Source: Massilia sp. (GTDB lineage Bacteria; Pseudomonadota; Gammaproteobacteria; Burkholderiales; Burkholderiaceae_D). Taken from it: a stretch of 64,000 bases of DNA. The position numbers were made by a program, and so were the translations under genes. The stretch covers positions 8,917 through 72,916 of the forward strand of contig JANNNC010000045.1 of assembly GCA_031398335.1 (NCBI GenBank), read 5' to 3'. The notes beneath the pieces are model-generated. The model was not told the origin of the DNA, did not search any database, and saw only the letters and a list, made by a program, of their open reading frames with translations. Positions 3,531 through 63,773 of this stretch are shown here, piece after piece (within the stretch, counting starts at the first letter, position 1; every line of letters begins with the position of its first letter).

Positions 3531-4309
3531 TCATGCGTTTCCTGGAGTCCACCGGCGCCACCGCGCGCGAATCGGTCGAAAGCCTCGGTTTTGCCACGCG
3601 CGCCTTTTTTAATTTGTTGCGTTTTTCGCCCGGCGCCTGGCGTCGTCCCAGCCTGATTTCCGAGCAAGTCCATTTTATTGGCAACTATTCGCTCCTCATC
3701 ACGGTCGTCTCGGGCCTGTTCGTCGGCCTGGTGCTGGGCCTGCAGTTCTACGTCAACCTGATCCAGTTCGGCGCCGAGGATAAACTCGGCTCGCTCACCG
3801 CCCTGTCGCTGATCCGCGAACTCGGTCCGGTGGTGACGGCGCTGCTGTTTGCGGGCCGCGCCGGCACCTCGCTCACCGCCGAGATCGGCCTGATGAAAGC
3901 CGGCGAGCAGTTGTCTGCCATGGAAATGATGGCGGTCAATCCGGTGCAGCGCGTGCTGGCGCCCCGTTTCTGGGGCGGCGTAATTGCCATGCCGGTGCTC
4001 GCTGCCGTGTTCTCGGCCGTCGGCATCATGGGCAGCTACCTGGTCGCCGTCAAAATGCTCAGTTTGGACGAAGGCGCGTTCTGGTCGCAAATGCAGGCTG
4101 GCGTCGACGTCAACCGCGATGTCGTCAGCAGTGTCATCAAGAGTTTCGTGTTTGGCATTGCCGTGACGTTCACGGCCGTGTTCCAGGGTTACCACGTGAA
4201 GCCAACCCCGGCCGACGTGGCGCGCGCCACCACGCGCACGGTCGTGATCGCCTCGCTGCTGGTACTGGGGCTGGATTTCGTCATGACCGCCCTGATGTTT
4301 GCACAATAA
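3527..4309 (+). CDS. mlaE: Phospholipid ABC transporter permease MlaE
   Basis: 260-aa polytopic membrane ORF with an ATGA overlap with mlaF. MlaE-like sequence (..LIRELGPVVTALLFAGRAG..). Confidence 0.9.
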   Translation: MIMRFLESTGATARESVESLGFATRAFFNLLRFSPGAWRRPSLISEQVHFIGNYSLLITVVSGLFVGLVLGLQFYVNLIQFGAEDKLGSLTALSLIRELGPVVTALLFAGRAGTSLTAEIGLMKAGEQLSAMEMMAVNPVQRVLAPRFWGGVIAMPVLAAVFSAVGIMGSYLVAVKMLSLDEGAFWSQMQAGVDVNRDVVSSVIKSFVFGIAVTFTAVFQGYHVKPTPADVARATTRTVVIASLLVLGLDFVMTALMFAQ

Positions 4310-4357
4310 ATCGTTTCGTATGGCCGCGCACAGACGGCCTGAACACTAGGAAATACT

Positions 4358-4831
4358 ATGCACCGTAAAATCATCGATGTCTGGGTTGGTCTGTTCGTCC
4401 TGTTGGGCGCTGCCGCTGTGTTGTTTCTGGCACTACAGGCGGGGAATATGAGCTCGCTCTCGTTCGCCGAGACCTACGCCGTCACTGGCAAATTCGATAA
4501 CATTGGTGGATTGAAGCCGCAAGCGCCAGTCAAGAGCGCCGGCGTCGTGGTCGGCCGGGTCGGCGACATCAGTTTCGACGACAAGACCTACCAGGCCATG
4601 GTTCGCCTTGACCTGGACCCGAACTACAAGTTCCCGAAAGATTCGTCGCTCAAGATCCTGACCGCAGGTTTGCTGGGCGAGCAATATATTGGCATCGAGC
4701 CGGGCGGCGACACGAAAAACCTCGTCGACGGCGATCGAATCAACCGTACGCAATCGGCCACCGTGCTGGAAGACCTGATCAATCAGTTCATCTACAGCAA
4801 GGCCGCCGATGGAAAGGAAGGCAGCGAATGA
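4358..4831 (+). CDS. mlaD: MCE-domain periplasmic component MlaD
   Basis: N-terminal TM anchor plus an MCE domain (..GLKPQAPVKSAGVVVGRV..). RBS AGGAAA lies upstream of the ATG. Confidence 0.9.
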   Translation: MHRKIIDVWVGLFVLLGAAAVLFLALQAGNMSSLSFAETYAVTGKFDNIGGLKPQAPVKSAGVVVGRVGDISFDDKTYQAMVRLDLDPNYKFPKDSSLKILTAGLLGEQYIGIEPGGDTKNLVDGDRINRTQSATVLEDLINQFIYSKAADGKEGSE

Positions 4832-5628
4832 AAAGCAAGAACATGAGGTCCCTGCGTGGACTGGCGCTGGCAGCGGGCGCCTGCGCCGCGCTGGCTGGCT
4901 GCGCCACCCCGAGCAACCCGCAAGATCCACTGGAAAAGTTGAACCGCGCAACCTTCGCATTCAACGACACGGTCGACCGGGTGGCCCTGAAGCCGGCCGC
5001 GACCGCCTATAAGAATGTGCTCCCGGGCTTCGTGCAAACGGGCGTGGGCAATTTCTTTGGTAATTTGTCGGATGCCTGGAGCTCGGTCAATAACCTGATG
5101 CAAGGCAAGGGCGAAGCCGGCGCGACCGATTTCATGCGGGTTGCATTGAATTCGACCTTCGGCATCGTCGGTATCCTCGACATCGCCTCGGAAGCTGGAT
5201 TGCAGAAACACAACGAAGATTTTGGACAAACCCTGGGCGTGTGGGGTGTTCCTGCGGGCCCCTACTTGATGTTGCCATTGTTGGGCCCATCTACGCTACG
5301 TGACACCGCTGCATTGCCTGCCGACATGTGGGCCGATGCCTGGACGACGGTGACGCCGGTGAGTACGCGTAACATCGGTATTGGCGTGCGTGCGGTCGAT
5401 CAGCGCGCCGCCATCCTGGACGCGTCGAGCCTGATGGAGGATGCTGCGCTCGACCGTTACGAATTCATTCGTGACGGCTATATGCAGCGCCGCGAAAGCC
5501 GCGTGCGTGACGGCGAATCTGCGCCGCGCGAGGACGCGCCAGCATCGGCTACGCCAGACACGCCGGCATCGAATACCCAGGTGGTGCCGACGCCGGCGTC
5601 AAGCGACGCCGGAAAGCAGCGGAAGTAA
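4828..5628 (+). CDS. mlaA: VacJ/MlaA family lipoprotein
   Basis: Lipobox 'LAGC' and the VacJ motif 'DPLEKLNRATFAFND'. ATGA overlap with mlaD. Confidence 0.85.
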   Translation: MKSKNMRSLRGLALAAGACAALAGCATPSNPQDPLEKLNRATFAFNDTVDRVALKPAATAYKNVLPGFVQTGVGNFFGNLSDAWSSVNNLMQGKGEAGATDFMRVALNSTFGIVGILDIASEAGLQKHNEDFGQTLGVWGVPAGPYLMLPLLGPSTLRDTAALPADMWADAWTTVTPVSTRNIGIGVRAVDQRAAILDASSLMEDAALDRYEFIRDGYMQRRESRVRDGESAPREDAPASATPDTPASNTQVVPTPASSDAGKQRK

Positions 5629-5702
5629 TAGTTCGTAAAACAGCTCGCACGACGCATGCAGTGTCCTGCAAGCTGTGTCTTCAAATACAGAAAAGAGAGC
5701 TT

Positions 5703-6350
5703 ATGAAACCAATCGCCCAACTCATTGCCACCGCCGCAACCCTCGTGTTCGCCACCAGCGTCATCGCCGCGCCAGCCCCGGCCACCAACGAGGCGCCGGA
5801 CGTGCTGGTGAAACGCATCAGCGCCGACGTGATCGACACCGTGAAAGCCGACAAGGACATCCAGGCCGGCAACCGCAACCGCATCATGGAACTGGTCAAT
5901 TCGAAGATCCTGCCGCACGTCGACGCCGAGAAGATGACGGCCCAGGCTGCCGGCCGCTTCTGGCGCCAGGCGACGCCGGAACAGCAAAAGCGCCTGTCGG
6001 AAGAATTCCGCACGCTGCTCGTGTACACGTATTCGGGCGCGCTGTCGCAGATCAAGAACGAAACGGTCGAATTCAAGCCGATGCGTTCGGAGTCGACCGA
6101 CACCGACGTCGAAGTGCGTTCCCAGGTGAACGTCGCCCGCGGCGAGCCGATCACCCTGAACTACCGCCTGGCGAAGGACACCGGTAGCTGGAAGATCTAC
6201 GACATCAACGTGCTGGGCGCGTGGCTGGTCGAGACCTACAAGGGCACGTTTGCTGCCGAGATCAACAAGTCGGGCGTCGACGGCCTGATCACCAAGCTGG
6301 CCGACCGCAACAAGCAACTGGCCAACAAGCCGTTGAAGGCCCCGAAGTAA
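5703..6350 (+). CDS. mlaC: Periplasmic phospholipid-binding protein MlaC (toluene tolerance Ttg2D family)
   Basis: Internal ATG at 5703 gives a signal peptide MKPIAQLIATAATLVFATSVIAAP. Its position in the mla cluster supports the call. Confidence 0.85.
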   Translation: MKPIAQLIATAATLVFATSVIAAPAPATNEAPDVLVKRISADVIDTVKADKDIQAGNRNRIMELVNSKILPHVDAEKMTAQAAGRFWRQATPEQQKRLSEEFRTLLVYTYSGALSQIKNETVEFKPMRSESTDTDVEVRSQVNVARGEPITLNYRLAKDTGSWKIYDINVLGAWLVETYKGTFAAEINKSGVDGLITKLADRNKQLANKPLKAPK

Positions 6351-6352
6351 GC

Positions 6353-6628
6353 ATGGCTGAAGCAAATCCGATGCTGTCCCTCGACGCCCTGACCTTCGAC
6401 ACCGCGCAAGCGGCGCTGGAGCAGGGCTGCGCCGCGATCCGGGCCGGCGAGACCGTGTTCGACTTGGGCGGCGTGCGCGCCGCCGATTCGTCCGGCGTCG
6501 CTTTGCTGCTGGCCTGGCAACGCCGCGCGCAGGATGCGGGGCAAAAGCTCACGTTTATTAATGTGCCGAGCAATATTGATGCGCTGACGCATTTGTATGG
6601 GTTGGACGGGGTGCTGGCACGCTCGTAA
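6353..6628 (+). CDS. mlaB: STAS-domain protein MlaB
   Basis: 91-aa ORF starting 3 nt after mlaC. STAS/anti-sigma-antagonist-like sequence (..DLGGVRAADSSGVALLLAW..). Confidence 0.75.
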   Translation: MAEANPMLSLDALTFDTAQAALEQGCAAIRAGETVFDLGGVRAADSSGVALLLAWQRRAQDAGQKLTFINVPSNIDALTHLYGLDGVLARS

Positions 6629-6635
6629 TATAGGG

Positions 6636-6662
6636 GTCATTGAGGCCAATGGCCTCAATGAC
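6636..6662. repeat. Perfect palindrome GTCATTGAGGCCA-A-TGGCCTCAATGAC
   Basis: 13-bp arms read directly from the sequence, 8 nt after the mlaB stop. There is no T-run, so it is not a canonical terminator. Confidence 0.8.
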
Positions 6663-6837
6663 GGGTTCACCGGGCGCCCCGTGCCCACGCGTGACGCGTG
6701 CGTTGCGGCGGCGTCTCAACTGGGCGCGCTGCGAATAACTTCTTCCTTCTCGATGCTGTGTCGGTGTGCTTTTGGAACCTGATCGGCTCGCTCGCATTAC
6801 CTCTTCCCTGACCGCCGCCGCTGACGCGACCTTACGC

Positions 6838-6856
6838 GTGGGCACAGCGTGCCCAC
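6838..6856. repeat. REP-like palindrome GTGGGCAC-AGC-GTGCCCAC (partial copy of the GTAGGGTGGGCAC family)
   Basis: Shares the GTGCCCACCC core with the palindromes at 19962-19989 and 42289-42322. A further GTGCCCAC lies at 6681-6688. Confidence 0.6.
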
Positions 6857-7014
6857 CCTGGGGTGCACTACCGCTAACGTTTCGAACATCACTGCGACCG
6901 CCCGCTGGTGACATCCTCAATGCCGTCAGGCTCTTGTATTCGCGATTTCCCCTATAATGGGCCGTTTCCCCGCCCGGTTTGCGCACGCTTCGTGCCCGGC
7001 CACTTCGAAGAATA

Positions 7015-7941
7015 ATGACAGCGATCCAGATTAACAGCGTCGAGAAAAGCTACAAGGCCTTCAAGGCCCTGAAAGGCGTTTCCCTGACAATCGAACAGGG
7101 CGAGTTCTTCGGCCTGCTGGGCCCGAACGGCGCCGGCAAGACGACCCTGATCTCCACCATTGCCGGCCTGATCCGGCCGGATGTCGGCAGCGTCAAGATC
7201 CACGGCCACGACGTCGTCACCGATTTCCGCGAAGCGCGACGAAAACTGGGCGTGGTGCCGCAGGAACTCGTGTTCGACCCGTTTTTTACGGTGCGCGAAA
7301 CGCTGCGCCTGCAATCCGGTTATTTCGGCATCAAGAACAACGACAAGTGGATCGACGAGGTCATGGACAACCTCGATTTGACCAATAAAGCCGACGTCAA
7401 CATGCGCGCCCTGTCGGGCGGCATGAAGCGGCGCGTGCTGGTGGCGCAAGCGCTGGTGCACAAGCCGCCGGTCATCGTGCTCGATGAGCCGACTGCCGGC
7501 GTCGACGTCGAACTGCGCCAGACCCTGTGGAAATTCATTTCTCGCCTGAACCGCGAAGGCGGGCACACGGTCGTGCTGACCACCCATTACCTGGAAGAAG
7601 CGCAGGCGATGTGCCAGCGCGTGGCGATGCTCAAATCCGGGCAGGTGGTCGCACTCGACACGATGAGTGCGCTGCTGCGCCGCGTGTCGGGTTCGCAGCT
7701 GATCGTGCACCTGAAAAGCGGAGAGCTACCGGCTGCGCTGCGCCACCTGGTCTCGCACGACGAGCACGGCAATGGCAACGGCAGCGGCAACAAATACAGC
7801 CTGCGCGTGAATGACTACCTTGAGGTCGAGCCGATCCTTTCTCGCCTGCGCGAGAGCGGGGCGGTCATCGACGAGATGCAGCTGCAGCAGGCCGACCTCG
7901 AAGATATTTTTATCCAAATTATGGAAAAGGGCGCGCTGTGA
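7015..7941 (+). CDS. ABC transporter ATP-binding protein (ABC-2 exporter type)
   Basis: Walker A 'GPNGAGKTT', signature 'LSGGMKRR' and Walker B 'VIVLDEPT'. The internal ATG at 7015 is the preferred start. Confidence 0.85.
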   Translation: MTAIQINSVEKSYKAFKALKGVSLTIEQGEFFGLLGPNGAGKTTLISTIAGLIRPDVGSVKIHGHDVVTDFREARRKLGVVPQELVFDPFFTVRETLRLQSGYFGIKNNDKWIDEVMDNLDLTNKADVNMRALSGGMKRRVLVAQALVHKPPVIVLDEPTAGVDVELRQTLWKFISRLNREGGHTVVLTTHYLEEAQAMCQRVAMLKSGQVVALDTMSALLRRVSGSQLIVHLKSGELPAALRHLVSHDEHGNGNGSGNKYSLRVNDYLEVEPILSRLRESGAVIDEMQLQQADLEDIFIQIMEKGAL

Positions 7942-8705
7942 GTGTCGTTTCTGTCGGTTTCCGCACCCTGTTTTATAAAGAGATGCTGCGCTTCTGGAAG
8001 GTCGCCACGCAAACCATCGCCGCGCCGATCCTCACCGCCATGCTGTATTTGCTGATCTTTGGCCACGTTTTGGAAGGCCGGGTCGAGGTGTATCCGGGCG
8101 TGAGCTACACCGCCTTCCTGGTGCCGGGCCTGGTGATGATGAGCGTGCTGCAGAACGCGTTTGCCAATGCGTCTTCGTCGCTGATCCAGTCCAAAATCAC
8201 CGGCAACCTGGTGTTCATCTTGCTGCCGCCCTTGTCGCACTGGGAAATCCTGCTCGCCTATGTGGCGGCCTCCGTCGTGCGCGGTGTGGTGGTCGGCGCC
8301 GGCGTGTTCGCCATTACCGCCTGGTTCGCGCACCTGAGTTTCGCCGCGCCCCTGTGGATCATCGTGTTCGCCCTGCTGGGCGCGGCCATTCTCGGCACGC
8401 TGGGCGTGATCGCCGGTATCTGGGCCGATAAATTCGACCAGCTCGCCGCATTCCAGAATTTCCTGATCATGCCGGCGACCTTCCTCGCCGGGGTGTTCTA
8501 TTCGATCCACTCGCTGCCAAGCTTCTGGCAAGCGGTCTCGCATTTCAACCCGTTCTTTTATATGATTGACGGGTTCCGCCACGGCTTCTTCGGCCAGTCC
8601 GATATTTCGCCGTGGACCAGCCTTGCCATCGTTTCCGCTTTCTTTGCGGTGCTGGCGGCCGTGGCGATCAACCTGCTGCGCGGCGGTTACAAGTTACGCC
8701 ACTGA
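7938..8705 (+). CDS. ABC-2 type transporter permease
   Basis: 255-aa membrane ORF of about 6 TM helices. GTGA overlap with the preceding ATPase. Confidence 0.85.
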   Translation: MSVVSVGFRTLFYKEMLRFWKVATQTIAAPILTAMLYLLIFGHVLEGRVEVYPGVSYTAFLVPGLVMMSVLQNAFANASSSLIQSKITGNLVFILLPPLSHWEILLAYVAASVVRGVVVGAGVFAITAWFAHLSFAAPLWIIVFALLGAAILGTLGVIAGIWADKFDQLAAFQNFLIMPATFLAGVFYSIHSLPSFWQAVSHFNPFFYMIDGFRHGFFGQSDISPWTSLAIVSAFFAVLAAVAINLLRGGYKLRH

Positions 8706-8733
8706 GTGCGTCATTGAACCCCATTGAATATAA

Positions 8734-8985
8734 ATGTTAGGAATTATCGTGTCGACCACTCCAGAACTGATCCACAGCTACATCGAAAACGGCCTGCAAT
8801 GCACCCACTTGCAGGTCGAGGGCGATGGACGTCACTTCTCGGCCCTGATCGTCTCGCCTGCCTTTGCCGGCAAGCGTCCGATCCAGCGCCACCAGCTGGT
8901 GTATGCGGCGCTGGGCGACCGCATGCGCGAAGAGATCCACGCACTGTCGATGAAAACCCTGACCCCTGAAGAGTACGGAGGCTAA
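8734..8985 (+). CDS. ibaG: BolA/IbaG family protein
   Basis: 83 aa with a BolA-like 'FSALIVSPAFAGKRPIQRHQLVY' segment. It sits between the mla genes and murA, as in the E. coli mla-ibaG-murA arrangement. The start may be GTG 8749. Confidence 0.8.
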   Translation: MLGIIVSTTPELIHSYIENGLQCTHLQVEGDGRHFSALIVSPAFAGKRPIQRHQLVYAALGDRMREEIHALSMKTLTPEEYGG

Positions 8986-10236
8986 ATGGACAAGCTGAAA
9001 ATCGTTGGCGGCAAACGCCTGAATGGCGACATCGCGGTCTCCGGCGCCAAGAACGCGGCGCTGCCCATCCTGTGCGCGGGCCTGCTCACCGCCGGCGACG
9101 TCGAATTGTCGAACGTGCCGCGCCTGCACGACGTCAAAACCATTTTGAAACTGCTCGAGCAGACCGGTTTGACCGTCATCCAGGACGACGAAAATGTCAC
9201 CCTGAACGGCGCCAACATCACCAGCCTGGAAGCGCCCTACGAGCTCGTGAAAACCATGCGCGCGTCGATCCTGGTGCTGGGCCCCCTGTTGGCGCGCTTC
9301 GGCGAAGCCAAGGTGTCGCTGCCGGGCGGCTGCGCGATCGGTTCGCGCCCGGTCGACCAGCACATCAAGGGCTTACGGGCGATGGGCGCCGAGATCACGA
9401 TCGAGGGCGGCTACATCTACGCGAAAGCGAAGAAATTAAAAGGCGCGCGCATCCTGACCGACATGATCACCGTCACCGGCACCGAGAATTTGCTGATGGC
9501 GGCGACCCTGGCCGAAGGCGAAACGGTACTGGAAAACGCCGCGCGCGAACCGGAAGTGACCGACCTCGCCAACCTGCTCGTCGCCATGGGCGCCAGGATC
9601 GAGGGCATCGGCACCGAGCGCCTGGTGATCCAGGGCGTGGCCGAGCTGCATGGCGCCAAACACGCCGTGATTTCCGACCGCATCGAAGCGGCGACTTTCC
9701 TGTGCGCGGTGGCGGCCACCGGCGGCGACATCCTCTTGACCAACACCCGCACCGACATCTTCGACGTCGCCCTCGACAAGCTGCGCGAAGTCGGCCTTCA
9801 AATGGAGATCGGGTCGAACACGATCCGCGCGCGCATGGATGGCCGTCCCCAGCCGGTGTCGTTCCGCACCACCGAGTATCCCGGCTTCCCGACCGACATG
9901 CAGGCCCAGTTCATGGCCGTCAACACGATCGCCGCCGGTCCGAGCCGCGTGACCGAGACGATTTTCGAGAATCGCTTCATGCATGTGCAAGAGATGAACC
10001 GCCTCGGCGCGCACATCTCGACCGAGGGCAATACCGCGTTCATCAAAGGCGTCGAACGCCTGGTGGGCGCGCAGGTGATGGCAACCGACCTGCGTGCCTC
10101 GGCCTCGCTGGTGATCGCCGCCATGGCCGCCGAGGGCACCTCCCTGATCGACCGCATCTATCACCTCGACCGCGGCTACGACCGCATGGAAGTGAAACTG
10201 TCGAAGGTCGGCGCCGAGATCGTGCGCATCAAGTAA
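8986..10236 (+). CDS. murA: UDP-N-acetylglucosamine 1-carboxyvinyltransferase
   Basis: 416 aa. MurA hallmarks '[12 protein letters not shown]' and the active-site loop '[15 protein letters not shown]'. Confidence 0.95.
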
Positions 10237-10254
10237 TCCATCAGTAAAGGCGCT

Positions 10255-10932
10255 ATGAGCATCGCAACACAATCGACCGAGCCGGGCCTGATCCTGGCGC
10301 TATCGAAAGGCCGGATTTTCGAGGACACGCTGCCCTTGCTGGAAGCGGCCGGCATCACCGTGCTGGAAAATCCGGACACCTCGCGCAAGCTGATTTTGGC
10401 GACCAACGATCCGGGCGTGCGCGTGCTGATCGTGCGCGCGACCGACGTGCCGACCTATGTCCAGTACGGCGCGGCCGACTTCGGCGTGGCCGGCAAGGAC
10501 GTGCTGCTCGAGCATGGCGGCGAAGGCCTGTACCAGCCGGTCGACCTGAACATCGCCGCCTGCCGCATGTCGGTGGCGGTGAATGCCGGTTTCGACTACG
10601 AGAAGGCCGTGCGCCAGGGTGCGCGCCTGCGCGTGGCGACCAAGTTCGTCAACACCGCGCGCCAGCACTTTGCCAGCAAGGGCGTGCACGTCGATCTGAT
10701 CAAACTGTACGGCTCGATGGAACTCGCGCCCCTGGTCGGCCTGTCGGACGCCATCGTCGACGTGGTCTCGACCGGCAATACGCTGCGCGCGAACAACCTG
10801 GTCGAAGTCGAGAAGATCATGGAGATCTCCTCGCGCCTGGTCGTGAACCAGGCAGCATTAAAGCTCAAGCGCGAGCGCCTGCAACCCATCATCGAGGCTT
10901 TTGAGAAGGCCTCGAAACAACTTCCGCAATAA
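10255..10932 (+). CDS. hisG: ATP phosphoribosyltransferase (short form)
   Basis: 225 aa. 'LALSKGRI', '[24 protein letters not shown]' and '[10 protein letters not shown]'. Confidence 0.95.
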
Positions 10933-10943
10933 GGCAAAACCCC

Positions 10944-12257
10944 ATGGCCCTACAGATCCGCACACTCGACTCCACCCACGACGGTTTTAAAGAGCAGCTG
11001 CATGCGCTGCTCGCTTTCGAGGCCGCGACCGACGATGCGATCGAAACGGCCGTGGGTCAGATCCTCGCCGACGTCAAGAAGCGCGGCGACGCCGCCGTGC
11101 TCGAATACACCAACCGGTTTGACCGCGTCGAGGCAACCAGCATGGCTGCCTTCGACCTTTCTCAGGAAGAGCTGCAAGCCGCATTGACCGCGCTGCCCGA
11201 AGCCCAGCGCGCCGCGCTGCAGACCGCGGCCGAGCGCATCCGCGCTTTTCACATGCGCCAGAAACAGGAACTCAAGGGCTTTACGTATACCGAACCGGAT
11301 GGCACGGTGCTCGGCCAGCGCGTCACCCCCTTGGACCGCGTCGGCATCTATGTCCCCGGCGGCAAGGCGGCCTATCCGTCGTCGGTGCTGATGAACGCGA
11401 TTCCGGCCCAGGTGGCTGGTGTCACCGACATTGTCATGGTGGTGCCGACCCCGGACGGCGTGAAGAATCAAATGGTGCTGGCTGCTGCCGCCATCGCCGG
11501 CGTAACGCGCGTGATCACCATCGGCGGCGCGCAGGCGGTGGCCGCACTGGCCTACGGCACCGAGACGATTCCGGCGGTCGATAAAATCGTCGGCCCGGGT
11601 AACGCCTATGTCGCCGCCGCCAAGCGCCGCGTGTTCGGCACGGACGGCATCGACATGATCGCGGGACCGTCCGAAATCCTGGTGCTGTGCGACGGCACCA
11701 CCGATCCGGACTGGGTGGCGATGGATTTGTTCTCGCAGGCGGAGCACGACGAGCTGGCGCAGGCGATCATGCTGTGCCCGGACGCCGCCTACATCGCCCA
11801 AGTGGAGGCGAGCATCCACAAGCTGCTGCCGACGATGCCGCGCCAGGAAACCATCGTCACCTCGCTGACCGACCGCGGCGCGCTCATCAAAGTGCGCGAC
11901 ATGGACGAAGCCTGCGCGATTGCCAACGACATCGCCGCCGAACACCTCGAGATCTCGGCCGAGAATCCGCAGCAGTGGGCCGATAAAATCCGCCACGCCG
12001 GCGCCATGTTCCTCGGCCAGTTTTCGTCGGAAGCCCTGGGCGACTATTGCTGCGGTCCGAACCACGTGCTGCCGACCTCGCGCACGGCGCGCTTCTCGTC
12101 GCCGCTGGGCGTGTACGACTTCCAGAAGCGCTCGTCGGTGCTGCAGGTGAGCGAGGCGGGCGCCCAGACGCTTGGTAAAGTCGCGGCCGAACTGGCCTAC
12201 GGCGAAGGCTTGCAGGCGCATGCCCGGAGTGCCGAATTGCGTATCAAGCAGTCATGA
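10944..12257 (+). CDS. hisD: Histidinol dehydrogenase
   Basis: 437 aa. 'AGPSEILV', 'QAEHDE' and '[13 protein letters not shown]'. Confidence 0.95.
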
Positions 12258-13096
12258 CGGACTGGGTCAACCAGGTATTTTGCGAGGATGCGCTGGCGGG
12301 ACTGGCGCGCATCCCCGATGGCGCCATCGACCTGCTCCTGACCGACCCGCCCTATAACCTGGGCAAGGACTACGGCAACGGCTCCGACCAGCAAAGCGTC
12401 GAAGCCTATCTCGCCTGGACCGAAAGCTGGATAGACGCCGCGCTGCCGAAACTTAAACCCAACGGCAGCCTCTACATCTTTCTCACCTGGCGCTTCGCGC
12501 CCGAGATCTTCGTGATGCTGAAAAAACGCATGACGATGATGAACGAGATCATCTGGGACCGGCGCGTGCCGTCGATGGGCGGCAGCGTGCGCAGTTTTTC
12601 ATCCGTGCACGATACCATCGGTTTTTTTGTGAACCGCAAGGATTATTATTTCGACCTCGATGCGGTCCGCATTCCGTACGATGCGGCGACCAAGAAAGCA
12701 CGCTCGCGCTCGATCTTTATTGGCGCCAAGTGGCTCGAGGTCGGCTACAACCCGAAGGATTTGTGGAGCGTGTCGCGCCTGCACCGCGAGCATCCGGAAC
12801 GCGCCGGCCATCCTACCCAGAAGCCGCTCGAGATCATCGAACGCATGATCAAGGCTTCCTGCCCGCCGGGCGGCGTCGTACTGGATCCCTTCATGGGCAG
12901 CGGCACCACGGCGATCGCGGCGCGCGGCCTGGGCCGCCAGTACGCCGGATTCGAACTGAATCCGGAGTACTGCGCCATCATCGCGGCACGCCTGGCGGCA
13001 CCAGCGCCGAGCCCCACCATCAAACAACGCAAGAGCATCGCGCGCGCCGCCAAGGCGGTCATTCGCGCGGCCAGCGCCACCGAGGAACAAGCATGA
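12254..13096 (+). CDS. Site-specific DNA methyltransferase, beta class (DPPY; N6-adenine or N4-cytosine), orphan
   Basis: Motif IV '[11 protein letters not shown]' lies near the N-terminus and motif I '[16 protein letters not shown]' near the C-terminus. ATGA overlaps join it to hisD (12254-12257) and hisC (13093-13096). No endonuclease gene is adjacent. Confidence 0.85.
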
Positions 13097-14190
13097 GCTT
13101 TATCGACAACCTGATCGCCAACGTCATCCGCGAAGACATCCGCGCCGGCAGCGCCTATGTCGTGCCCGATTCGAGGGGTTTGATCAAGCTCGATGCGATG
13201 GAAAACCCGTATGAATTGCCGGGTGAACTGCGCGAAGAACTGGCGCGGCGCCTGGCTGACGCGGTGCTGAACCGTTATCCGGTGGCCTCGTATGCAACCC
13301 TGAAGGGCAAGGTCATCGACAAGCTCGGCATCCCGGCCGGCTACGATGTCCTGCTCGGCAATGGCTCGGACGAGCTGATCCAGATCGTTGCCACCACCGT
13401 CGCCAACCAGAAACGGCGCGCCGCCGTGCTGGCGCCGGTGCCGGCCTTTGTCATGTATGCGCGCTCGGCCCAGTTCGCAGGCGCCGACTTCGTCGGGGTG
13501 AAGTTGAAAGAGGACTTCTCGCTCGACATGGAGGCCATGCTCGCCGCAATCGCCCTGCACCAGCCGGCGGTGGTGTTCCTGGCCTACCCCAACAACCCGA
13601 CCGGCAACCTGTTCGCAACCGAAGACATCGAAGCCATCCTGCACGCGCTCGGCGACACCGGCATTGCCGTGCTCGATGAAGCCTACCAGCCGTTTGCACG
13701 TGCAACCTTCATGGACCGCCTGGGTGACTTCGAGAACCTGGTCGTGATGCGCACCGTCTCCAAACTCGGCCTGGCCGGCATCCGCCTCGGCTACATGACG
13801 GCCGCTCCCCAGTTGCTGGCCGAGTTCGAGAAGGTGCGCCCGCCGTATAACGTCAACGTGCTGACCCAGGTGGCGGCCGAGTTCGTGCTCGACCATGTCG
13901 CCGTGCTCGACGCCCAGGCCGCCAGCATCATTGCCGAGCGCGAGCGCATGATGCCCGAACTGGCGGCGCTGCCGGGAGTCCAAGTATTTCCTTCCAAGGC
14001 GAATTTCATCACCCTGCGCGTGCCGGACGCGGCCGCCGTTTGCGCAAAACTCCTGGACGAGAAGGTGCTGATCAAAAATTTGAGTAAAATGCATGGATCG
14101 CTGGCCAATTGCATCCGTGTCACGGTCAGCACCCCGGAAGAAAATTCCGCATTCCTGAATGCCCTCAAGGCAGCGCTCACGCCAGCGTAA
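13093..14190 (+). CDS. hisC: Histidinol-phosphate aminotransferase
   Basis: Start taken at ATG 13093 (MSFIDNLI..). Class-II aminotransferase with the PLP-lysine region 'MRTVSKLGLAGIRLGY'. The 486-aa ORF-track extension overlaps the methylase and is rejected. Confidence 0.9.
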   Translation: MSFIDNLIANVIREDIRAGSAYVVPDSRGLIKLDAMENPYELPGELREELARRLADAVLNRYPVASYATLKGKVIDKLGIPAGYDVLLGNGSDELIQIVATTVANQKRRAAVLAPVPAFVMYARSAQFAGADFVGVKLKEDFSLDMEAMLAAIALHQPAVVFLAYPNNPTGNLFATEDIEAILHALGDTGIAVLDEAYQPFARATFMDRLGDFENLVVMRTVSKLGLAGIRLGYMTAAPQLLAEFEKVRPPYNVNVLTQVAAEFVLDHVAVLDAQAASIIAERERMMPELAALPGVQVFPSKANFITLRVPDAAAVCAKLLDEKVLIKNLSKMHGSLANCIRVTVSTPEENSAFLNALKAALTPA

Positions 14191-14218
14191 GCCGCCCTGA
14201 ACAGACGAGCACCCTTTC

Positions 14219-14809
14219 ATGACCCGCACCGCAGACATCACCCGCAACACCAACGAAACGCAGATCCGCGTTTCGCTCAATCTCGACGGCACCGGCCGCC
14301 AGAAACTGAACACCGGCGTGCCCTTCCTCGACCACATGCTCGACCAGATCGCGCGCCACGGCATGATCGACCTTGAAGTCGAGGCCGTGGGTGACCTGCA
14401 CATCGATGCCCACCACACGGTCGAGGACACCGGCATCACGCTCGGCATGGCGATCGCGAAAGCCGTCGGCGACAAGAAGGGCATGACCCGCTACGGCCAC
14501 TCCTACGTGCCGCTGGACGAAGCGCTGTCGCGCGTGGTGATCGATTTCTCGGGCCGTCCCGGCCTGGAAATGCACATCCCGTGGACGCGCGCGATGATCG
14601 GCACCTTCGATGTCGACCTGACGGGCGAATTCTTCCGCGGCTTCGTGAACCACGCCGGCGTGACCCTGCACATCGATAACCTGCGCGGCGTGAACGCGCA
14701 CCACCAGTGCGAAACCGTCTTCAAAGCCTTCGGGCGCGCGCTGCGCATGGCCACCACGCTCGACGAGCGCGCCGCCGGCATCATCCCTTCGACCAAAGGC
14801 AGCCTGTGA
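14219..14809 (+). CDS. hisB: Imidazoleglycerol-phosphate dehydratase
   Basis: 196 aa. '[16 protein letters not shown]', '[11 protein letters not shown]' and '[20 protein letters not shown]'. Confidence 0.95.
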
Positions 14810-14838
14810 TCGAATCTACTGAGCGGGTTGACTGAGCC

Positions 14839-15480
14839 ATGACGAACAAGATTGTGGTGGTCGACGGCCTGGGCAACCTGCGCTCGGTGGCGCAGGCGCT
14901 GCGCGCCGCGGCGCCGGAAGCGCACATCCTGGTCTCGAACAAGGCGGCCGACATCGATGCGGCCGACCGCATCGTGCTGCCGGGCCAGGGCGCGATGCGC
15001 GACTGCATGGCCAGCCTGCGCGAATCGGGCGCCGAGGAAGCGCTACGCCGCGCCGTCAACACGCGTCCGGTGATGGGCGTGTGCGTCGGCGAGCAGATGC
15101 TGTTCGACGAGAGCGAAGAAAATGGCGGCACGCCGGGCCTGGGCCTGTTCGCGGGCAAGGTCGTGCGCTTCCAGCTGGACGGGAAGTTGCAGGCTGATGG
15201 TTCGCGCTTCAAGGTCCCGCAGATGGGCTGGAACCGCGTGCGGCAGACCCGCTCGCACCCGCTGTGGGAAGGCGTCGACGACGGCAGCTATTTTTATTTT
15301 GTGCACAGCTATTACGTCGCTCCCGAAAACGTGAGCGACACCATCGGCGAAGCCGACTACGGCGGCGCCTACACCTGCGCCGTTGCGCGCGACAACATCG
15401 TCGCCACCCAGTTTCACCCCGAAAAAAGCGCGGCCGCCGGGCTGCGCCTGTATCGCAATTTTATTCATTGGAATCCGTGA
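14839..15480 (+). CDS. hisH: Imidazole glycerol phosphate synthase, glutaminase subunit
   Basis: 213 aa. 'VLPGQGA', catalytic Cys 'GVCVGEQML' and 'ATQFHPEKS'. Confidence 0.95.
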
Positions 15481-15527
15481 ACGCGCGCGTTCACGCCACC
15501 GTCTCCGCCACCTAACCGACACCGACC

Positions 15528-16304
15528 ATGCTGCTGATCCCCGCCATCGACCTGAAAGACGGTCACTGCGTTCGCCTTCAACAGGGCGATATGGACCTCG
15601 CCACCGTCTTCTCCGAAGACCCCGCCCAAATGGCCCTGCATTGGCTGAAGAAGGGCGCGCGCCGCCTGCACCTGGTCGACCTGAACGGCGCCTTCGCCGG
15701 CAAGCCGAAAAACGGGCCGGCCATCAAATCGATCCTGCAGGTAGTGCAGGAATATGCCGAACAAAACGGCATCGACGAGATCCCGGTCCAGCTGGGCGGC
15801 GGCATCCGCGACCTCGACACCATCGAGCGCTACCTGGACGACGGCATCAGCTACATCATCGTCGGCACCGCCGCGGTGAAGAACCCGGGCTTCCTGCACG
15901 ACGCCTGCGGCGCCTTCCCCGGTGCGATCATCGTCGGCCTCGACGCCAAGGACGGTAAAGTGGCCACCGACGGCTGGAGCAAAATGTCGGGCCACGAAGT
16001 GATCGACCTGGCGAAGAAGTTCGAGGGCTATGGCGTCGAATCGATCATTTATACGGACATCGGCCGCGACGGCATGATGGGCGGGATTAACATCGAAGCG
16101 ACCGTGCGCCTGGCGCAAGCGGTGCGCATCCCGATCATCGCTTCCGGCGGCCTGCACAACCTGGGCGACGTCGAGGCGCTGTGCGCGGTGCAGGACGAAG
16201 GCATCGAAGGCGTAATCTGCGGCCGCTCGATCTACGAAGGCACGATCGACCTGGCCTCGGCCCAGGCGCGCGCCGACGAACTGACCGAGGGCGAACAGGC
16301 TTAA
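15528..16304 (+). CDS. hisA: ProFAR isomerase
   Basis: 258 aa. '[17 protein letters not shown]' and '[14 protein letters not shown]'. Confidence 0.95.
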
Positions 16305-16323
16305 TCGGCCGGACGGACATCCT

Positions 16324-17085
16324 ATGCTCGCAAAACGCATCATTCCCTGCCTCGACGTGACCGGCGGGCGCGTCGTCAAGGGCGTCAATTTCACCGAACT
16401 GCGCGACGCCGGCGACCCGGTCGAAATCGCACGCCGCTATGACGGGCAAGGCGCCGACGAAATCACCTTCCTCGACATCACCGCCTCTTCCGACAACCGC
16501 GACCTGATCCTGCCGATCATCGAAGCGGTCGCCTCGACGGTTTTTATTCCCTTGACCGTCGGCGGCGGCGTGCGCAAGGTGGAAGACGTACGCCGGCTAT
16601 TAAATGCCGGCGCCGACAAGGTCAGCATGAACACCTCGGCCGTGCAGAATCCGCAGCTGGTGTTCGAGGCCTCGCAAAAGCACGGCGCCCAGTGCATCGT
16701 GGTGGCGATCGACGCCAAGCAGGTATCTCCCGGCAAGTGGGAAGTGTTTACGCATGGCGGACGCAATGCCACCGGTATGGATGCGGTGGCGTGGGCGATC
16801 CGGCTCGAGCAACTGGGCGCGGGCGAACTGTTATTGACCAGCATGGACCGCGACGGCACCAAGTCCGGCTTCGATCTCGGCCTGACGCGCGCCGTGTCGG
16901 ATGCGGTCGGCATTCCGGTGGTCGCCTCGGGCGGCGTCGGCGGCCTGCAAGACCTGGCCGACGGCGTCCTGAAAGGGCATGCGGACGCTGTGCTGGCCGC
17001 TTCGATTTTCCACTACGGGCAGCACACGGTCGGCGAAGCGAAACGCTTCATGGCCGAGCGCGGCATCCCGATGCGCCTGGAGTAA
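16324..17085 (+). CDS. hisF: Imidazole glycerol phosphate synthase, cyclase subunit
   Basis: 253 aa. 'KRIIPCLDV', '[13 protein letters not shown]' and '[15 protein letters not shown]'. Confidence 0.95.
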
Positions 17086-17088
17086 GGT

Positions 17089-17508
17089 ATGCCCCATTCG
17101 ACGACCAACAATGCGGCGTGGCTGAAAAAGGTGCGCTGGGACGAGAACGGTTTGGTTCCCGTCATCGCCCAGGAGGCCAGCACGGGCGACATCCTGATGT
17201 TCGCCTGGATGAACCGCGACGCCCTGGCGCGTACCGTGGAACTGGGCGAAGCCGTGTACTGGAGCCGCTCGCGTAAAAAGCTGTGGCACAAGGGCGAGGA
17301 GTCCGGGCATACGCAAAAAGTGCTGGAGATGCGCCTCGACTGCGACGAAGACGTGGTGCTGCTCAAAATCGAGCAGGCCGGCGGGATCGCCTGCCATACC
17401 GGTCGCCATTCCTGCTTCTACCAGCAATTCGACGGCGAAGACTGGCAGGCGGTGGAGCCGGTGCTGCAGGATCCAGAAACGATTTATACGAATAAGAAGG
17501 CCTCATGA
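17089..17508 (+). CDS. hisI: Phosphoribosyl-AMP cyclohydrolase
   Basis: 139 aa. 'LVPVIAQ', '[10 protein letters not shown]' and '[26 protein letters not shown]'. Confidence 0.95.
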
Positions 17509-17846
17509 GCACGACCCTGGCGCGTTTGGCGCACACCATCGAATCGCGCAAGCCGGTCAACGGTGGCGACCCGGCGACCTCGTATGTCGCGAAACTGTTC
17601 GCCAAGGGCGACGACGCGATCCTGAAAAAGATAGGCGAAGAGGCCACCGAGACCGTGATGGCGGCCAAAGACGCGCGCGTCTCCGGGGATGCCTCCGGGT
17701 TGCTGTACGAAGTGGCGGACCTGTGGTTCCATTCGATGGTGCTGCTGGCCAAATTCGACCTCACGCCGCAACAGGTGCTCGACGAACTGGCGCGCCGCGA
17801 AGGTTTATCCGGCCTCGACGAAAAAGCGTCGCGCAAGGAAGACTGA
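17505..17846 (+). CDS. hisE: Phosphoribosyl-ATP pyrophosphatase
   Basis: 113 aa. '[24 protein letters not shown]' and 'EVADLWFH'. ATGA overlap with hisI. Confidence 0.9.
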
Positions 17847-17951
17847 TTCACGCCGCGTCATTGCCGCGTAATCGTTCTCATATAAGATTGTTCAGATTGT
17901 TCAGATTGCCCTGCGGCCTGCTTGCCGCAACAACAGAGATTGGAGACACGC

Positions 17952-18326
17952 GTGGATAACTGCATTTTCTGCAAGATTGCCGCCAAGCAGATCCCGGCGC
18001 ACGTCGTGTTCGAAGACGACGACTTGCTGGCGTTCAAGGACATCAACCCGGCCGCGCCGGTCCACTTGCTGGTGATTCCGAAGCAGCACGTCGACACCTT
18101 GTCCGACGTCACCGAGGAACACACGGCCGTGCTGGGCAAGATGCTGGCGCTGGTGCCGAAGCTGGCCGCCGAACATGGCGTGGCGGTGACGACGGACGCC
18201 AATGGCAAGCCCAGCGGCGGCTATAAAACCCTGATCAACAGCGGGCCCAACGGCGGGCAGGAAGTCTATCACCTGCACATGCACGTGTACGGGGGCGCGC
18301 GTCCCTGGCGCGGCCTGGGCACCTGA
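17952..18326 (+). CDS. HIT (histidine triad) family protein
   Basis: 'CIFCKI' and the triad 'HLHMHV'. GTG 17952 follows GGAGAC and is preferred over the TTG at 17922. Confidence 0.85.
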   Translation: MDNCIFCKIAAKQIPAHVVFEDDDLLAFKDINPAAPVHLLVIPKQHVDTLSDVTEEHTAVLGKMLALVPKLAAEHGVAVTTDANGKPSGGYKTLINSGPNGGQEVYHLHMHVYGGARPWRGLGT

Positions 18327-18442
18327 CATTTTACTAAGTTATTACTAAGCGTTGCGAACGCCAGCATGGCTTATACTGGCACAGCATGTACGAATGAGGC
18401 TTCAACGATTGCGGGCGCCGAGCGCCTACTGAGGAGATCGAA

Positions 18443-18688
18443 ATGGGTTCAATGAGCATTTGGCACTGGGTCATCGTGCTGGTCGTGGTGGTGCTGCTGT
18501 TCGGCACCAAAAAGCTGGGCAATGTGGGCTCCGACATCGGTAAAGCGGTGAAGGGCTTCAAGGATGGTGTCAAGGGCGACGAAGAGAAGGCCGCAGCGAA
18601 TGCGACCACGCCGCCGCCGATCCACCCGAGCCAGGTAGCGGACAAATCGACGATCGACGTCGAGACCCGTGAAAAGCACCGTTCTTAA
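18443..18688 (+). CDS. tatA: Twin-arginine translocase subunit TatA
   Basis: 81 aa. A TM helix followed by '[23 protein letters not shown]'. RBS GAGGAG. Confidence 0.9.
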
Positions 18689-18703
18689 TCCGGTCGCCGC
18701 CGT

Positions 18704-19195
18704 ATGATCGACCTGGGACTGTCGAAGCTTGCCATCATCGGTGTGGTGGCGCTGATCGTGATCGGCCCTCAAAAGCTGCCGAAGGTGGCGCGCATGGCCG
18801 GCACGCTCTACGGTCGCGCCCAGCGCTACCTGCACGATGTCAAGTCCGAGGTCAGCCGCGAGATCCAGCTCGACGAACTGCGCAACCTGCACAAGGAAGT
18901 GCACGACAGCGCCGCCGAATTCAAGTCGGACGTCGAGTACCACATGTCGAGCAGCATTGGCGAGGTCGAAGCCGCCTGGCGCGGCGATATCCAGCCGAGC
19001 GCACCAAGCCCTGCCGCCAGCATGGATAACCTCGAGCGCAAGGCCAAGGACTTCCGGCGCAAGAAGCTCGTGCGCAGCTCCGCCGTGCCGGCCTGGTACA
19101 AGCATCGCAACGGCAGCAAGACCCGGGTCCTGTCGGGCGCCGCGCGCGTGCGCAAGTTTCGTCCCGGCGTGAAATCCACGAATTCATTCTTTTAG
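18704..19195 (+). CDS. tatB: Twin-arginine translocase subunit TatB
   Basis: 163 aa. 'MIDLGLSKLAIIGVVALIVIGPQKLP'. Confidence 0.85.
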   Translation: MIDLGLSKLAIIGVVALIVIGPQKLPKVARMAGTLYGRAQRYLHDVKSEVSREIQLDELRNLHKEVHDSAAEFKSDVEYHMSSSIGEVEAAWRGDIQPSAPSPAASMDNLERKAKDFRRKKLVRSSAVPAWYKHRNGSKTRVLSGAARVRKFRPGVKSTNSFF

Positions 19196-19201
19196 AACTA
19201 C

Positions 19202-19957
19202 ATGACCGAAGAAGCGCCAGTCGAAGAAACCTTCATTTCCCACCTCGTCGAACTGCGCGACCGCCTGGTCAAAGCCATCATCGGCGTGGCGATCGTCTGC
19301 ATCGGGCTGATGATCTGGCCGGGACCGGAGGAAATCTACAACTACCTGGCTGCACCGATGCTCGCCTCGTTGCCGCCGGGTGCGCAGATGATCGCCACCG
19401 GCGTCATCGCACCCTTCCTGGTGCCGATGAAGGTGACCCTGATGGTCGCGCTGATCGTGGCGCTGCCCTGGGTCTTCTACCAGATGTGGGCCTTCGTCGC
19501 CCCCGGCCTGTACGCGCACGAAAAACGCCTGGTGCTGCCGCTCGTGGTCTCGTCCTCGTTCCTGTTCATCGGCGGCGTCGCCTTCTGTTATTTCTTCGTG
19601 TTCGGGCGCGTGTTTCATTTCATTGCCGCCTTCGCGCCATCCTCGATCGCCGTCATGCCCGACATCGAGAACTACCTGGATTTCGTGATGTCGATGTGCC
19701 TGGCCTTCGGCGCCACCTTCGAGGTGCCGGTGGTGGTCGTGATCCTGGTGCGCATGGGGATCGTCAGCATCGAAAAGCTCAAGGAAATCCGCCCGTACCT
19801 GATCGTCGGCGCCTTCGTCATCGCCGCCATCGTCACGCCGCCGGACGTGGTCAGCCAGCTGGCGCTGGCCATCCCGATGTGCCTGCTGTTCGAACTGGGC
19901 CTGCTGGTCGCGCCGATGTTCGTGCGCATGACGCAGGCGCCGGAAGAGCCAGCCTGA
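19202..19957 (+). CDS. tatC: Twin-arginine translocase subunit TatC
   Basis: 251 aa with 6 TM helices. 'HLVELRDRL' and 'FVAPGLYAHEKR'. Confidence 0.95.
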   Translation: MTEEAPVEETFISHLVELRDRLVKAIIGVAIVCIGLMIWPGPEEIYNYLAAPMLASLPPGAQMIATGVIAPFLVPMKVTLMVALIVALPWVFYQMWAFVAPGLYAHEKRLVLPLVVSSSFLFIGGVAFCYFFVFGRVFHFIAAFAPSSIAVMPDIENYLDFVMSMCLAFGATFEVPVVVVILVRMGIVSIEKLKEIRPYLIVGAFVIAAIVTPPDVVSQLALAIPMCLLFELGLLVAPMFVRMTQAPEEPA

Positions 19958-19961
19958 GTTC

Positions 19962-19989
19962 GTAGGGTGGGCACGGATGCCCACCCTAC
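19962..19989. repeat. REP-like palindrome GTAGGGTGGGCAC-GGA-TGCCCACCCTAC followed by TTTTT (likely tatC terminator)
   Basis: Read directly from the sequence. It is the same 13-mer arm family as at 42289-42322. It overlaps the last codons of the convergent gene at 19986-20237. Confidence 0.75.
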
Positions 19990-20237
19990 TTTTTGAGCGA
20001 ACGAATGTGCTCAAGCAGGTCGTTTTCGCGTCCCTCGGCCACCAGCACAGCCGGCGTCTTGCCCTCGAAAGCGCCAAGCGGCGCCTCCATCCAGCTGCTC
20101 GCCACCGCGTCATTGCCGACGATGCTTTGCACCGCGTGCATGGCCGTGTAATACGCCTGCGCCTTGCGCGACTGCGCCTCGAAACGTTCGCGCAGCGCCG
20201 TCAGGGAGTCGGGAGTGAGTTGTGCGTCCTGGGTCAT
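19986..20237 (-). CDS. Stand-alone DUF2384 (Xre/MbcA/ParS antitoxin C-terminal, toxin-binding type) domain protein
   Basis: 83 aa. '..IVGNDAVASSWMEAPLGAFEGKTPAVLVAEGRENDLLEHIRSL' fits the DUF2384 pattern (A..W...P...lgG.tP..l....G...v...L). It has no HTH domain. ATGA overlap with the upstream gene. Confidence 0.6.
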   Translation of the reverse strand: MTQDAQLTPDSLTALRERFEAQSRKAQAYYTAMHAVQSIVGNDAVASSWMEAPLGAFEGKTPAVLVAEGRENDLLEHIRSLKK

Positions 20238-20980: not shown

Positions 20981-21176
20981 TCGAGAACTATACCGGAAGC
21001 GCCAGTGCGGACGCGGCACCGCACTCTGTGCAAAAAAACATCACTGTGCAGAAATATGGCAGGTACAAGTTGACGCGTTGATATAATTCCGTTTTTGCAA
21101 TTTTGCCCATGCGTTCATGCGCCACTGCGCCGCTGCAAACATTGTTGCCGGTTCTCTCCGCTATTTAAGGAACACT

Positions 21177-44354: not shown

Positions 44355-44434
44355 GCTGAACATTGTAGCGCGGGGCGCATCTCTCTCGGATGTCGCTTCG
44401 TTACAATGCTCACCTGTTTTCCAGAATAATTCCC

Positions 44435-51766: not shown

Positions 51767-51858
51767 TGTGCCGGCACGACAATAAGCCTGCTATGATCTG
51801 GCGCGCATCTGCCCGCGGCGATCCCGCGGCAGCCTTTTTCGTGTCCGTGAGAGAGACC

Positions 51859-63736: not shown

Positions 63737-63773
63737 GTTTTTACTGATCGGTTCTTCATTTCAAAACTGAATC

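Follow-up and report, generated by a model that had tools for sequence, protein, structure and literature searches.

The window analysed here, a stretch of 64,000 nucleotides (nt) from a Massilia species (contig JANNNC010000045.1), carries a histidine biosynthesis (his) operon in which a gene for a DNA methyltransferase is embedded between hisD and hisC. According to the list of open reading frames (ORFs) and the sequence itself, the gene occupies 12254-13096 on the forward strand and encodes 280 amino acids (aa). It shares a four-letter ATGA with each of its neighbours: its ATG (12254-12256) overlaps the TGA of hisD (12255-12257), and its own TGA (13094-13096) overlaps the ATG of hisC (13093-13095). 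The upstream neighbour matches Pfam Histidinol_dh with an E-value (E) of 5.9e-166 and TIGR00069 with 522 bits, while the downstream neighbour matches TIGR01141 with 319 bits, above the cut-off of 276.55. The gene order is murA-hisG-hisD-MT-hisC-hisB-hisH-hisA-hisF-hisI-hisE, where MT stands for the methyltransferase gene, and the gaps range from -4 to 47 nt. The G+C content at third codon positions (GC3) of the methylase gene is 0.80, within the operon range of 0.80-0.89, and its codon usage is likewise that of the operon. An earlier note, made from the sequence alone, had described a beta-class methylase of this length within the his operon, with ATGA at both junctions, a DPPY motif near the N-terminus and FMGSGTT near the C-terminus; coordinates, the Pfam match and the short intergenic gaps bear out this description (Table 1). 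A 579-aa antisense ORF at 12745-14484 (-), which runs across the methylase, hisC and part of hisB, was disregarded as a shadow artefact of high G+C content; a simple gene caller based on GC3 was fooled by it.

An orphan methylase of the M.BceJIV family

The protein matches the Pfam family N6_N4_Mtase (PF01555) with 195.5 bits against a cut-off of 26.7 (E 1.5e-57), residues 25-243 covering profile positions 1-219 of 221. Motif IV lies N-terminal to motif I, which is the circular permutation of the beta class, and the DPPY tetrapeptide is invariant in 127/127 family members. The top matches among Protein Data Bank (PDB) entries are 8URK, 9C3S, 9C3T and 9C3U (E 1.8e-115, gap-free over 241 residues), all of them structures of M.BceJIV, an orphan beta-class enzyme of Burkholderia cenocepacia that methylates N6 of the fifth base of GTWWAC (PMC11380664). 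Its gene, BCAM0992, lies between trpB and trpA without an adjacent restriction gene or a promoter of its own; it accounts for GTWWAC methylation, and its deletion alters motility and gene expression (PMC7364216). The Ralstonia homologue was independently assigned GTWWAC and described as an orphan with promoter-enriched sites, conserved across Burkholderiaceae (PMC5390034).

The likeness to M.BceJIV thus extends from the class and the predicted N6-methyladenine (m6A) product to about 65% identity, to the residues that contact DNA and cofactor, and to residence as an orphan in an amino-acid operon without a promoter of its own. The differences are equally clear. The host operon of M.BceJIV is trp (trpF-trpB-MT-trpA-accD, an order that we read directly in B. 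cenocepacia and R. syzygii DNA), while that of the window gene is his, and the two enzymes fall into separate clades. M.BceJIV carries a disordered N-terminal extension of about 28 residues, which the Delta29 construct used for crystals omits; the window protein ends instead in a basic C-terminal tail. Among Oxalobacteraceae enzymes such C-terminal tails are highly variable in length (total protein 263-395 aa), some being rich in Lys, Ala and Pro and histone H1-like, and Burkholderia enzymes have the N-terminal extension in their place; the tails may bind DNA non-specifically. The Ralstonia solanacearum GTWWAC orphan methylases M.RsoORF1982P and M.Rso31ORF22890P belong to the same family as the window enzyme, and the R. 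syzygii homologue (L082) shows 66% identity over the aligned core. Unlike the window enzyme, the Ralstonia methylase is embedded between trpB and trpA and has glutamine at both of the base-contact positions that distinguish the clades (see below).

More distant systems help to place the enzyme. The earlier note had likened it to CcrM and M.HinfI, and at the level of the class this stands: motif IV precedes motif I, DPPY is shared, and CcrM of Caulobacter (GANTC) is also an orphan with a role in cell physiology. As a family assignment it fails, since the match to the CcrM model (NCBIfam NF050803) reaches 108.1 bits against a cut-off of 830, and the YhdJ model (NF008572) fares similarly with 149.8 bits against 292; the comparison is valid at class level only, the actual family being that of M.BceJIV. 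The CcrM structure 6PBD is matched with E 3e-23, its chain of 366 aa exceeds the 280 aa of the window enzyme, and the predicted targets differ; the window enzyme presumably lacks the C-terminal domain of CcrM. The Type II restriction-modification (R-M) methylases M.RsrI and M.MboIIA have the fold and the Pfam family in common with it (E about 1e-40), but they operate with a linked endonuclease and the window locus has none. Dam of Escherichia coli is an orphan adenine methylase co-transcribed with unrelated housekeeping genes, near trpS (PMC7364216). In contrast to the window enzyme, however, Dam is of the alpha class, recognises GATC, is homologous only in fold, and its gene is not locked by overlapping codons between those for two enzymes of a single pathway.

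Conservation of the his-embedded arrangement

A scan of species-representative genomes returned at least 586 relatives, of which the best 80 were examined; all belong to Oxalobacteraceae, namely Massilia, Telluria, Duganella, Pseudoduganella and Janthinobacterium. The closest among the matches listed, at 95% identity, is Massilia sp. Leaf139, which is also the nearest cultured relative by locus. In all of these 80 loci the order murA-hisG-hisD-MT-hisC-hisB is found as far as the contigs reach, and both hisD and hisC are visible in 78. Since it recurs in every one of the 80 that reaches the neighbouring genes, the arrangement is more than chance. A -4 overlap joins hisD to the methylase in 49/78 genome loci and the methylase to hisC in 24/78, most other gaps being at most 35 nt.

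Metagenome contigs scanned with an invariant 10-letter peptide pattern supplied a further 120 loci, a sample not ranked by similarity to the window. The methylase stands in his context in 62 of them, as trpB-MT-trpA in 45 and in other surroundings in 13. A neighbour-joining tree, midpoint-rooted and without bootstrap support, keeps the enzymes embedded in his entirely apart from those embedded in trp, as two clades. A place between trpB and trpA is a matter of context in the described members and not a biochemical property; the window gene, lying in his, is marked by it as a member of a separate clade. A search with a mixed Burkholderia/Ralstonia/Massilia profile gave only Massilia, Duganella and Janthinobacterium again, while a profile of deep his-clade metagenome sequences led to named proteins of further genera. 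Contigs of Undibacterium, Noviherbaspirillum and Glaciimonas show hisD-MT-hisC, and a Herbaspirillum metagenome-assembled genome (L206) shows hisD-MT-hisB, with hisC absent from that position. The same hisD-MT-hisB order without hisC in the operon was also seen at L105, L108, L129, L149, L151, L164, L174 and L180, all, with L206, in one sub-lineage of the his clade; in these loci the methylase stands in the place of hisC.

Together, the genome loci and the contigs of the four further genera establish that the his embedding occurs in every Oxalobacteraceae genus sampled, the methylase following hisD across at least seven named genera. The synteny comparison that the earlier note had proposed therefore dispels the notion of an arrangement peculiar to the window genome, and the trp placement of the sister clade has already been published. 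Contigs from runs X9, X16 and X1 were compared with a trp-context locus for a Massilia trpB-trpA pair lacking a methylase; these are complex mixtures, and no contig in them was assignable.

An old gene under purifying selection

The ratio of non-synonymous to synonymous substitution rates (dN/dS) is 0.04-0.11 for the methylase core, compared with 0.08-0.17 for hisD and 0.14-0.40 for hisC. No phage relative of the methylase exceeds 37% identity, and the matches to plasmid records at 66-71% are all on Burkholderia, Caballeronia and Ralstonia records, nearly all of them megabase chromids. The methylase gene is hence old, vertically inherited and under purifying selection. A recent selfish or horizontal insertion, decaying or without function in its host, would find a point of contact only in the general resemblance to Type II methylases (PADLOC MTase_II). 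The operon-like composition, the strong purifying selection, the recurrent overlaps, the phage and plasmid results, the same position in all those genera and a phylogeny congruent with genomic context exclude it for practical purposes.

Contact residues and predicted specificity

The residues of M.BceJIV that contact the bases, the flipped adenine and the cofactor, as given in its structure paper (PMC11380664), were mapped onto the window protein; the numbering of that paper equals the ORF at the Burkholderia locus plus 1 and the window numbering plus 28. Of the 26 contact residues, 22 are identical. Among them, R152, F155 and W160 read the major groove and R175 and H177 the minor groove; the wedge formed by M108-G109-G110 is also unchanged, as are T78, W79, H119 and D120. 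The adenine pocket (D31, P32, Y34, Y40, K190) is intact, and the cofactor residues F213, S216, T218 and E234 correspond to F241, S244, T246 and E262 of M.BceJIV. With the full-length profile match, this answers a doubt raised by the earlier note, for the catalytic motifs are intact and not degenerate.

Four positions differ. The change of I263 to L235 is a conservative one at the cofactor site. That of L182 to I154 is unlikely to set specificity, because the position is L, R or I among trp-clade enzymes and Arg in the Ralstonia homologue. The remaining two, Q108 to R80 (nt 12491-12493) and Q207 to E179 (nt 12788-12790), are polar changes at the contacts to the outer G:C pair: in M.BceJIV, Q108 touches the flipped cytosine and Q207 touches N2 of the outer guanine (PMC11380664). 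Position 80 is R in 69/69 his-clade enzymes and Q in 45/45 trp-clade enzymes; position 179 is E in 68/69 and Q in 45/45, respectively.

We consider GTWWAC the likely target of the window enzyme. The prediction is drawn from sequence comparison: identity between the window and Burkholderia enzymes (64.7%) is about that between the Burkholderia and Ralstonia homologues (65.6%), and GTWWAC was determined experimentally in both of these genera. The same family and operon coupling could also go with another recognition sequence, in which the outer G:C pair is relaxed or replaced or, less likely, the target is an N4-cytosine. The clade-fixed arginine and glutamate speak for this, as do the contacts made in M.BceJIV by the glutamines that they replace. 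On the other hand, the readers of T2, W3, W4 and A5 (R152, F155, W160, R175, H177, M108-G110) are identical or conservatively changed, the adenine pocket is unaltered, and the position of L182 varies even in the trp clade, which includes GTWWAC-methylating genera. Moreover, glutamate can accept a hydrogen bond from guanine N2 and arginine can donate to cytosine O2 or N3, so that both changes would fit a G:C pair. An altered specificity is unlikely on this evidence.

Probable transcription with the his genes

The earlier note held that the methylase must be co-transcribed with the his genes, and RNA-labelled runs containing relatives support this. Their contigs span hisD-MT-hisC and extend into hisB (X23, 10951-13283; X25, 11975-14894). 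Among metatranscriptome contigs, one reaches across the boundary of hisD and MT (12098-12358) and another across that of MT and hisC. A scan of 6000-21000 detected no promoter-like site within hisD-hisC, and promoter- and terminator-like sites over the scanned region as a whole, as between 6000 and 19900, are no commoner than in shuffled sequence. No leader or riboswitch was found near the operon in an Rfam scan.

The genes mlaF-mlaE-mlaD-mlaA-mlaC, an ABC-2 transporter pair, bolA/ibaG and murA (2727-10236) lead directly into hisG, and this mla-to-murA block is kept in the Undibacterium, Noviherbaspirillum, Glaciimonas and Herbaspirillum contigs. Its conservation suggests that transcripts of the his genes may start a long way upstream, and the transcription unit probably begins further upstream than murA.

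Orphan status and a probable former partner

None of the genes scanned, about 40 of the roughly 57 in the window, encodes an endonuclease or a specificity subunit or belongs to a mobile element, in agreement with the earlier note. The scanned genes are of housekeeping type: a chemoreceptor, mlaFEDAC, the ABC-2 transporter, bolA/ibaG, murA, the his genes, a HIT protein and tatABC, and further a TonB receptor, an SNF2 helicase, hemE, priA, a UvrD/Rep helicase and peptidases. With 13 GTWWAC sites in the window, where Markov models predict 11-16, there is no avoidance of the site. The sole intergenic one, GTAAAC at 38719-38724, precedes the priA start codon (38790) by 71 nt. Another GTWWAC site lies 224 nt into the gene for the UvrD/Rep-type helicase (44390-46516); the promoter of the rep helicase is a reported target of the homologous methylase in B. 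cenocepacia.

Relatives outside both clades present a different picture. In 6 of the 13 loci of other context an ORF of about 200 aa, here called ORF x, lies directly upstream of the methylase (Table 1), and its identity between loci is 63-87%. Searches of Pfam, PADLOC and the PDB (by sequence and by profile) gave no match for it. In the three copies scanned (L154, L178 and L125), weak but co-located matches to the NCBIfam UpaP162 family of type II restriction enzymes appear with E 4e-5 to 2e-4, below the curated cut-off. As these are consistent from copy to copy, ORF x is probably the ancestral endonuclease partner. The x-MT pairs resemble the Type II systems of M.RsrI and M.MboIIA. One locus, L166, has a truncated ORF x beside an intact methylase and looks like a snapshot of endonuclease loss. 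At another (L154:236-3312, -) the order is scpA-x-MT-scpB, where ATGA joins scpA to x as well as x to MT and the overlap with scpB is 32 nt; the insertion is welded in as in the his operon, but into a chromosome-segregation operon.

In the tree, x-bearing loci occur in the sister group of the his clade as well as in the outgroup. On the simplest reading, the family might descend from an R-M pair, the his and trp clades being orphans without the endonuclease, which was possibly lost independently in each; the order of loss and capture events is not settled by a midpoint-rooted neighbour-joining tree without bootstrap.

The existence of ORF x upstream of the methylase outside the his and trp clades, with its weak likeness to UpaP162, also lends some colour to a split Type II R-M system, in which the window gene would be the modification half and the endonuclease would lie elsewhere in the genome. 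Yet even a relaxed search finds no ORF x in the window or in the flanks of 142 his-context and 48 trp-context loci. Moreover, GTWWAC is not avoided, and the chromosomal position is fixed across the family, unlike that of mobile R-M systems. We regard a split system as very improbable.

A subtler alternative is positional addiction, in which a formerly selfish R-M remnant persists mainly through the lock-in of its codon overlaps inside an essential biosynthetic operon and not through benefit to the host, since nearly every spontaneous deletion would turn the cell into a histidine auxotroph. It accords with the presence of the same ATGA overlaps in relatives within scpA-x-MT-scpB and also trpB-MT-trpA, and with the existence of x-MT pairs that have a probable endonuclease; other relatives adjoin minC, ogg or a NUDIX gene, where adjacency and not embedding is seen. 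Against it stand the low dN/dS of the methylase and the invariance of its catalytic residues across several genera. Trapping alone is insufficient to account for such a ratio, because a useless trapped gene could decay in frame. In addition, deletion of the Burkholderia homologue alters motility and gene expression (PMC7364216). Positional addiction as the main explanation is quite unlikely.

Interpretation

Overall, we hold with good confidence that the window encodes a functional, vertically inherited orphan m6A methylase of the M.BceJIV family, coupled to the his operon and directed at GTWWAC, whose mark is epigenetic or housekeeping in nature rather than part of restriction. Of this, the analysis shows directly the gene anatomy, family membership, purifying selection, family-wide conservation and the absence of a linked endonuclease. 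The earlier note had favoured such a role over restriction, and it gains from the fact that the nearest solved relative, M.BceJIV, is an orphan regulator, that no endonuclease was found among the scanned window genes and that GTWWAC is not depleted.

The GTWWAC specificity, a single transcript in the window organism and the regulatory role we infer from the relatives. The methylase would have no promoter of its own and depend on the one or more that serve murA-his; ribosomes ending hisD would reinitiate at the overlapping methylase ATG, and those ending the methylase would pass on to hisC. Given a shared murA-his transcript and coupled translation, methylase dosage would follow expression of the his operon. 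By homology, the enzyme would methylate GTWWAC at its fifth base on each strand; the mark may act as in Burkholderia and Ralstonia, where it is promoter-enriched and modulates transcription.

Several points weigh against this reading. The two base-contact differences, R80 and E179, are fixed by clade, and recognition of the outer G:C pair could differ accordingly. No methylome of an Oxalobacteraceae species was found in the searched literature, so the GTWWAC assignment is one by homology. The RNA contigs belong to relatives at 82-90% identity and, being assemblies, may contain DNA, for which reason they support co-transcription without being decisive. GTWWAC shows no intergenic enrichment in the window, with 1/13 sites where about 12% of the sequence is non-coding, although the sample is small. 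A GTWWAC site kept at one position, as a hint of autoregulation, was sought in 66 orthologous loci and not found. Finally, orphan status was judged from 64 kb of the genome, and an unlinked endonuclease is possible beyond it.

Other features of the window

The minus strand at 30937-37004 encodes a 1377-aa SNF2-family helicase and, after it, a 645-aa protein of the S9 prolyl-oligopeptidase family; two small ORFs without a Pfam match lie nearby (29920-30872). Tandem genes for M3-family peptidases of 747 and 720 aa are found at 51751-56294 (+). A 500-aa ORF at 24081-25583 (-) has a gene-like GC3 of 0.86 and no Pfam match at E 1e-6, and two adjacent tRNA genes (Rfam 68-69 bits) lie at the window end (63663-63849, -). 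The window derives from a contig of a freshwater-sediment metagenome run or is nearly identical to one (94% of sampled words).

Table 1. Coordinates of the methylase, its operon and the ORF x copies of relatives (window positions, unless preceded by the name of a locus)
Feature	Position	Strand	Basis or remark
murA	8986..10236	+	ORF; EPSP_synthase PF00275 at the same position in relatives; 18-nt gap to hisG
hisG, ATP phosphoribosyltransferase	10255..10932	+	ORF; PF01634 HisG at the orthologous position; synteny
hisD, histidinol dehydrogenase	10944..12257	+	Pfam Histidinol_dh, TIGR00069; stop overlaps methylase start
Orphan beta-class N6-adenine DNA methyltransferase	12254..13096	+	PF01555, PDB 8URK match, contact residues, dN/dS; predicted target GTWWAC
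ATGA overlap, hisD stop/methylase start	12254..12257	+	Sequence; recurs as -4 overlap in genome loci
Motif IV DPPY, residues 31-34	12344..12355	+	GAC CCG CCC TAT; catalytic loop gripping the flipped adenine; M.BceJIV D59/P60/Y62
Target-recognition residues R152, I154, F155, W160 (target-recognition domain) and R175, H177, E179 (loop-6F)	12704..12790	+	Mapped to M.BceJIV R180, L182, F183, W188, R203, H205, Q207
Motif I FMGSGTT, residues 213-219, S-adenosylmethionine-binding loop	12890..12910	+	TTC ATG GGC AGC GGC ACC ACG; F213/S216/T218 equivalent to M.BceJIV F241/S244/T246
Short basic C-terminal tail, residues ~248-280	12995..13093	+	Alignment; length varies in relatives
hisC ribosome-binding site GAGGAA (Shine-Dalgarno)	13082-13087	+	Sequence; inside the last codons of the methylase
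ATGA overlap, methylase stop/hisC start	13093..13096	+	Sequence; recurs as -4 overlap in genome loci
hisC, histidinol-phosphate aminotransferase	13093..14190	+	TIGR01141
hisB-hisH-hisA-hisF-hisI-hisE, remainder of operon	14219..17846	+	ORFs; gaps -4 to 47 nt; Pfam labels of orthologous genes
First strong terminator-like hairpin downstream, after tatC	19962..19989	+	Terminator scan; 12-bp stem, then T run
ORF x	L154:1838-2443	-	Conserved; 4-nt overlap with methylase start
ORF x	L178:239-850	+	Conserved; 4-nt overlap with methylase start
ORF x	L125:6976-7578	+	Conserved; short gap to methylase
ORF x	L119:1791-2390	-	Conserved; short gap to methylase
ORF x	L161:1435-2001	-	Conserved; short gap to methylase
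Truncated ORF x, C-terminal 101 residues only	L166:9974-10276	-	Beside intact methylase, then 8-oxoguanine glycosylase gene

Concluding remarks

What is already published, for the trp clade, comprises the enzyme family as such, its status as an orphan, the epigenetic role and the location within an amino-acid operon. The searched literature yielded nothing relevant on a his-embedded methylase; this sister clade, its two fixed base-contact substitutions and the x-MT relatives appear undescribed as far as our searches show.

We tentatively entertain, as a possibility for which the odds are not favourable, that the lineage began as an R-M module of ORF x and methylase, entered housekeeping operons by way of start/stop overlaps, lost the endonuclease and was then kept for a long time. 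If this is true, the module would have been fixed in a different operon from family to family (his for Oxalobacteraceae, trp for Burkholderiaceae, scpA-scpB for a lineage still carrying ORF x), and domestication would have happened twice independently, once in his and once in trp. Operon embedding would then be a selected strategy, either tying methylation to growth or amino-acid status or making the gene hard to delete. The x-MT relatives, including the one with a truncated ORF x, could offer a traceable route from an R-M system to a domesticated orphan.

In annotation, "probable GTWWAC-type orphan m6A methylase" could replace the generic 'site-specific DNA-methyltransferase'. The two clade-fixed changes in base-reading residues provide material for testing how specificity evolves. 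Moreover, the M.BceJIV family is among the few bacterial orphan methylases for which genetics, methylomes and crystal structures are all at hand, and the large sister clade in the his operon offers a natural point of comparison when one asks what ties an epigenetic writer to biosynthetic operons.

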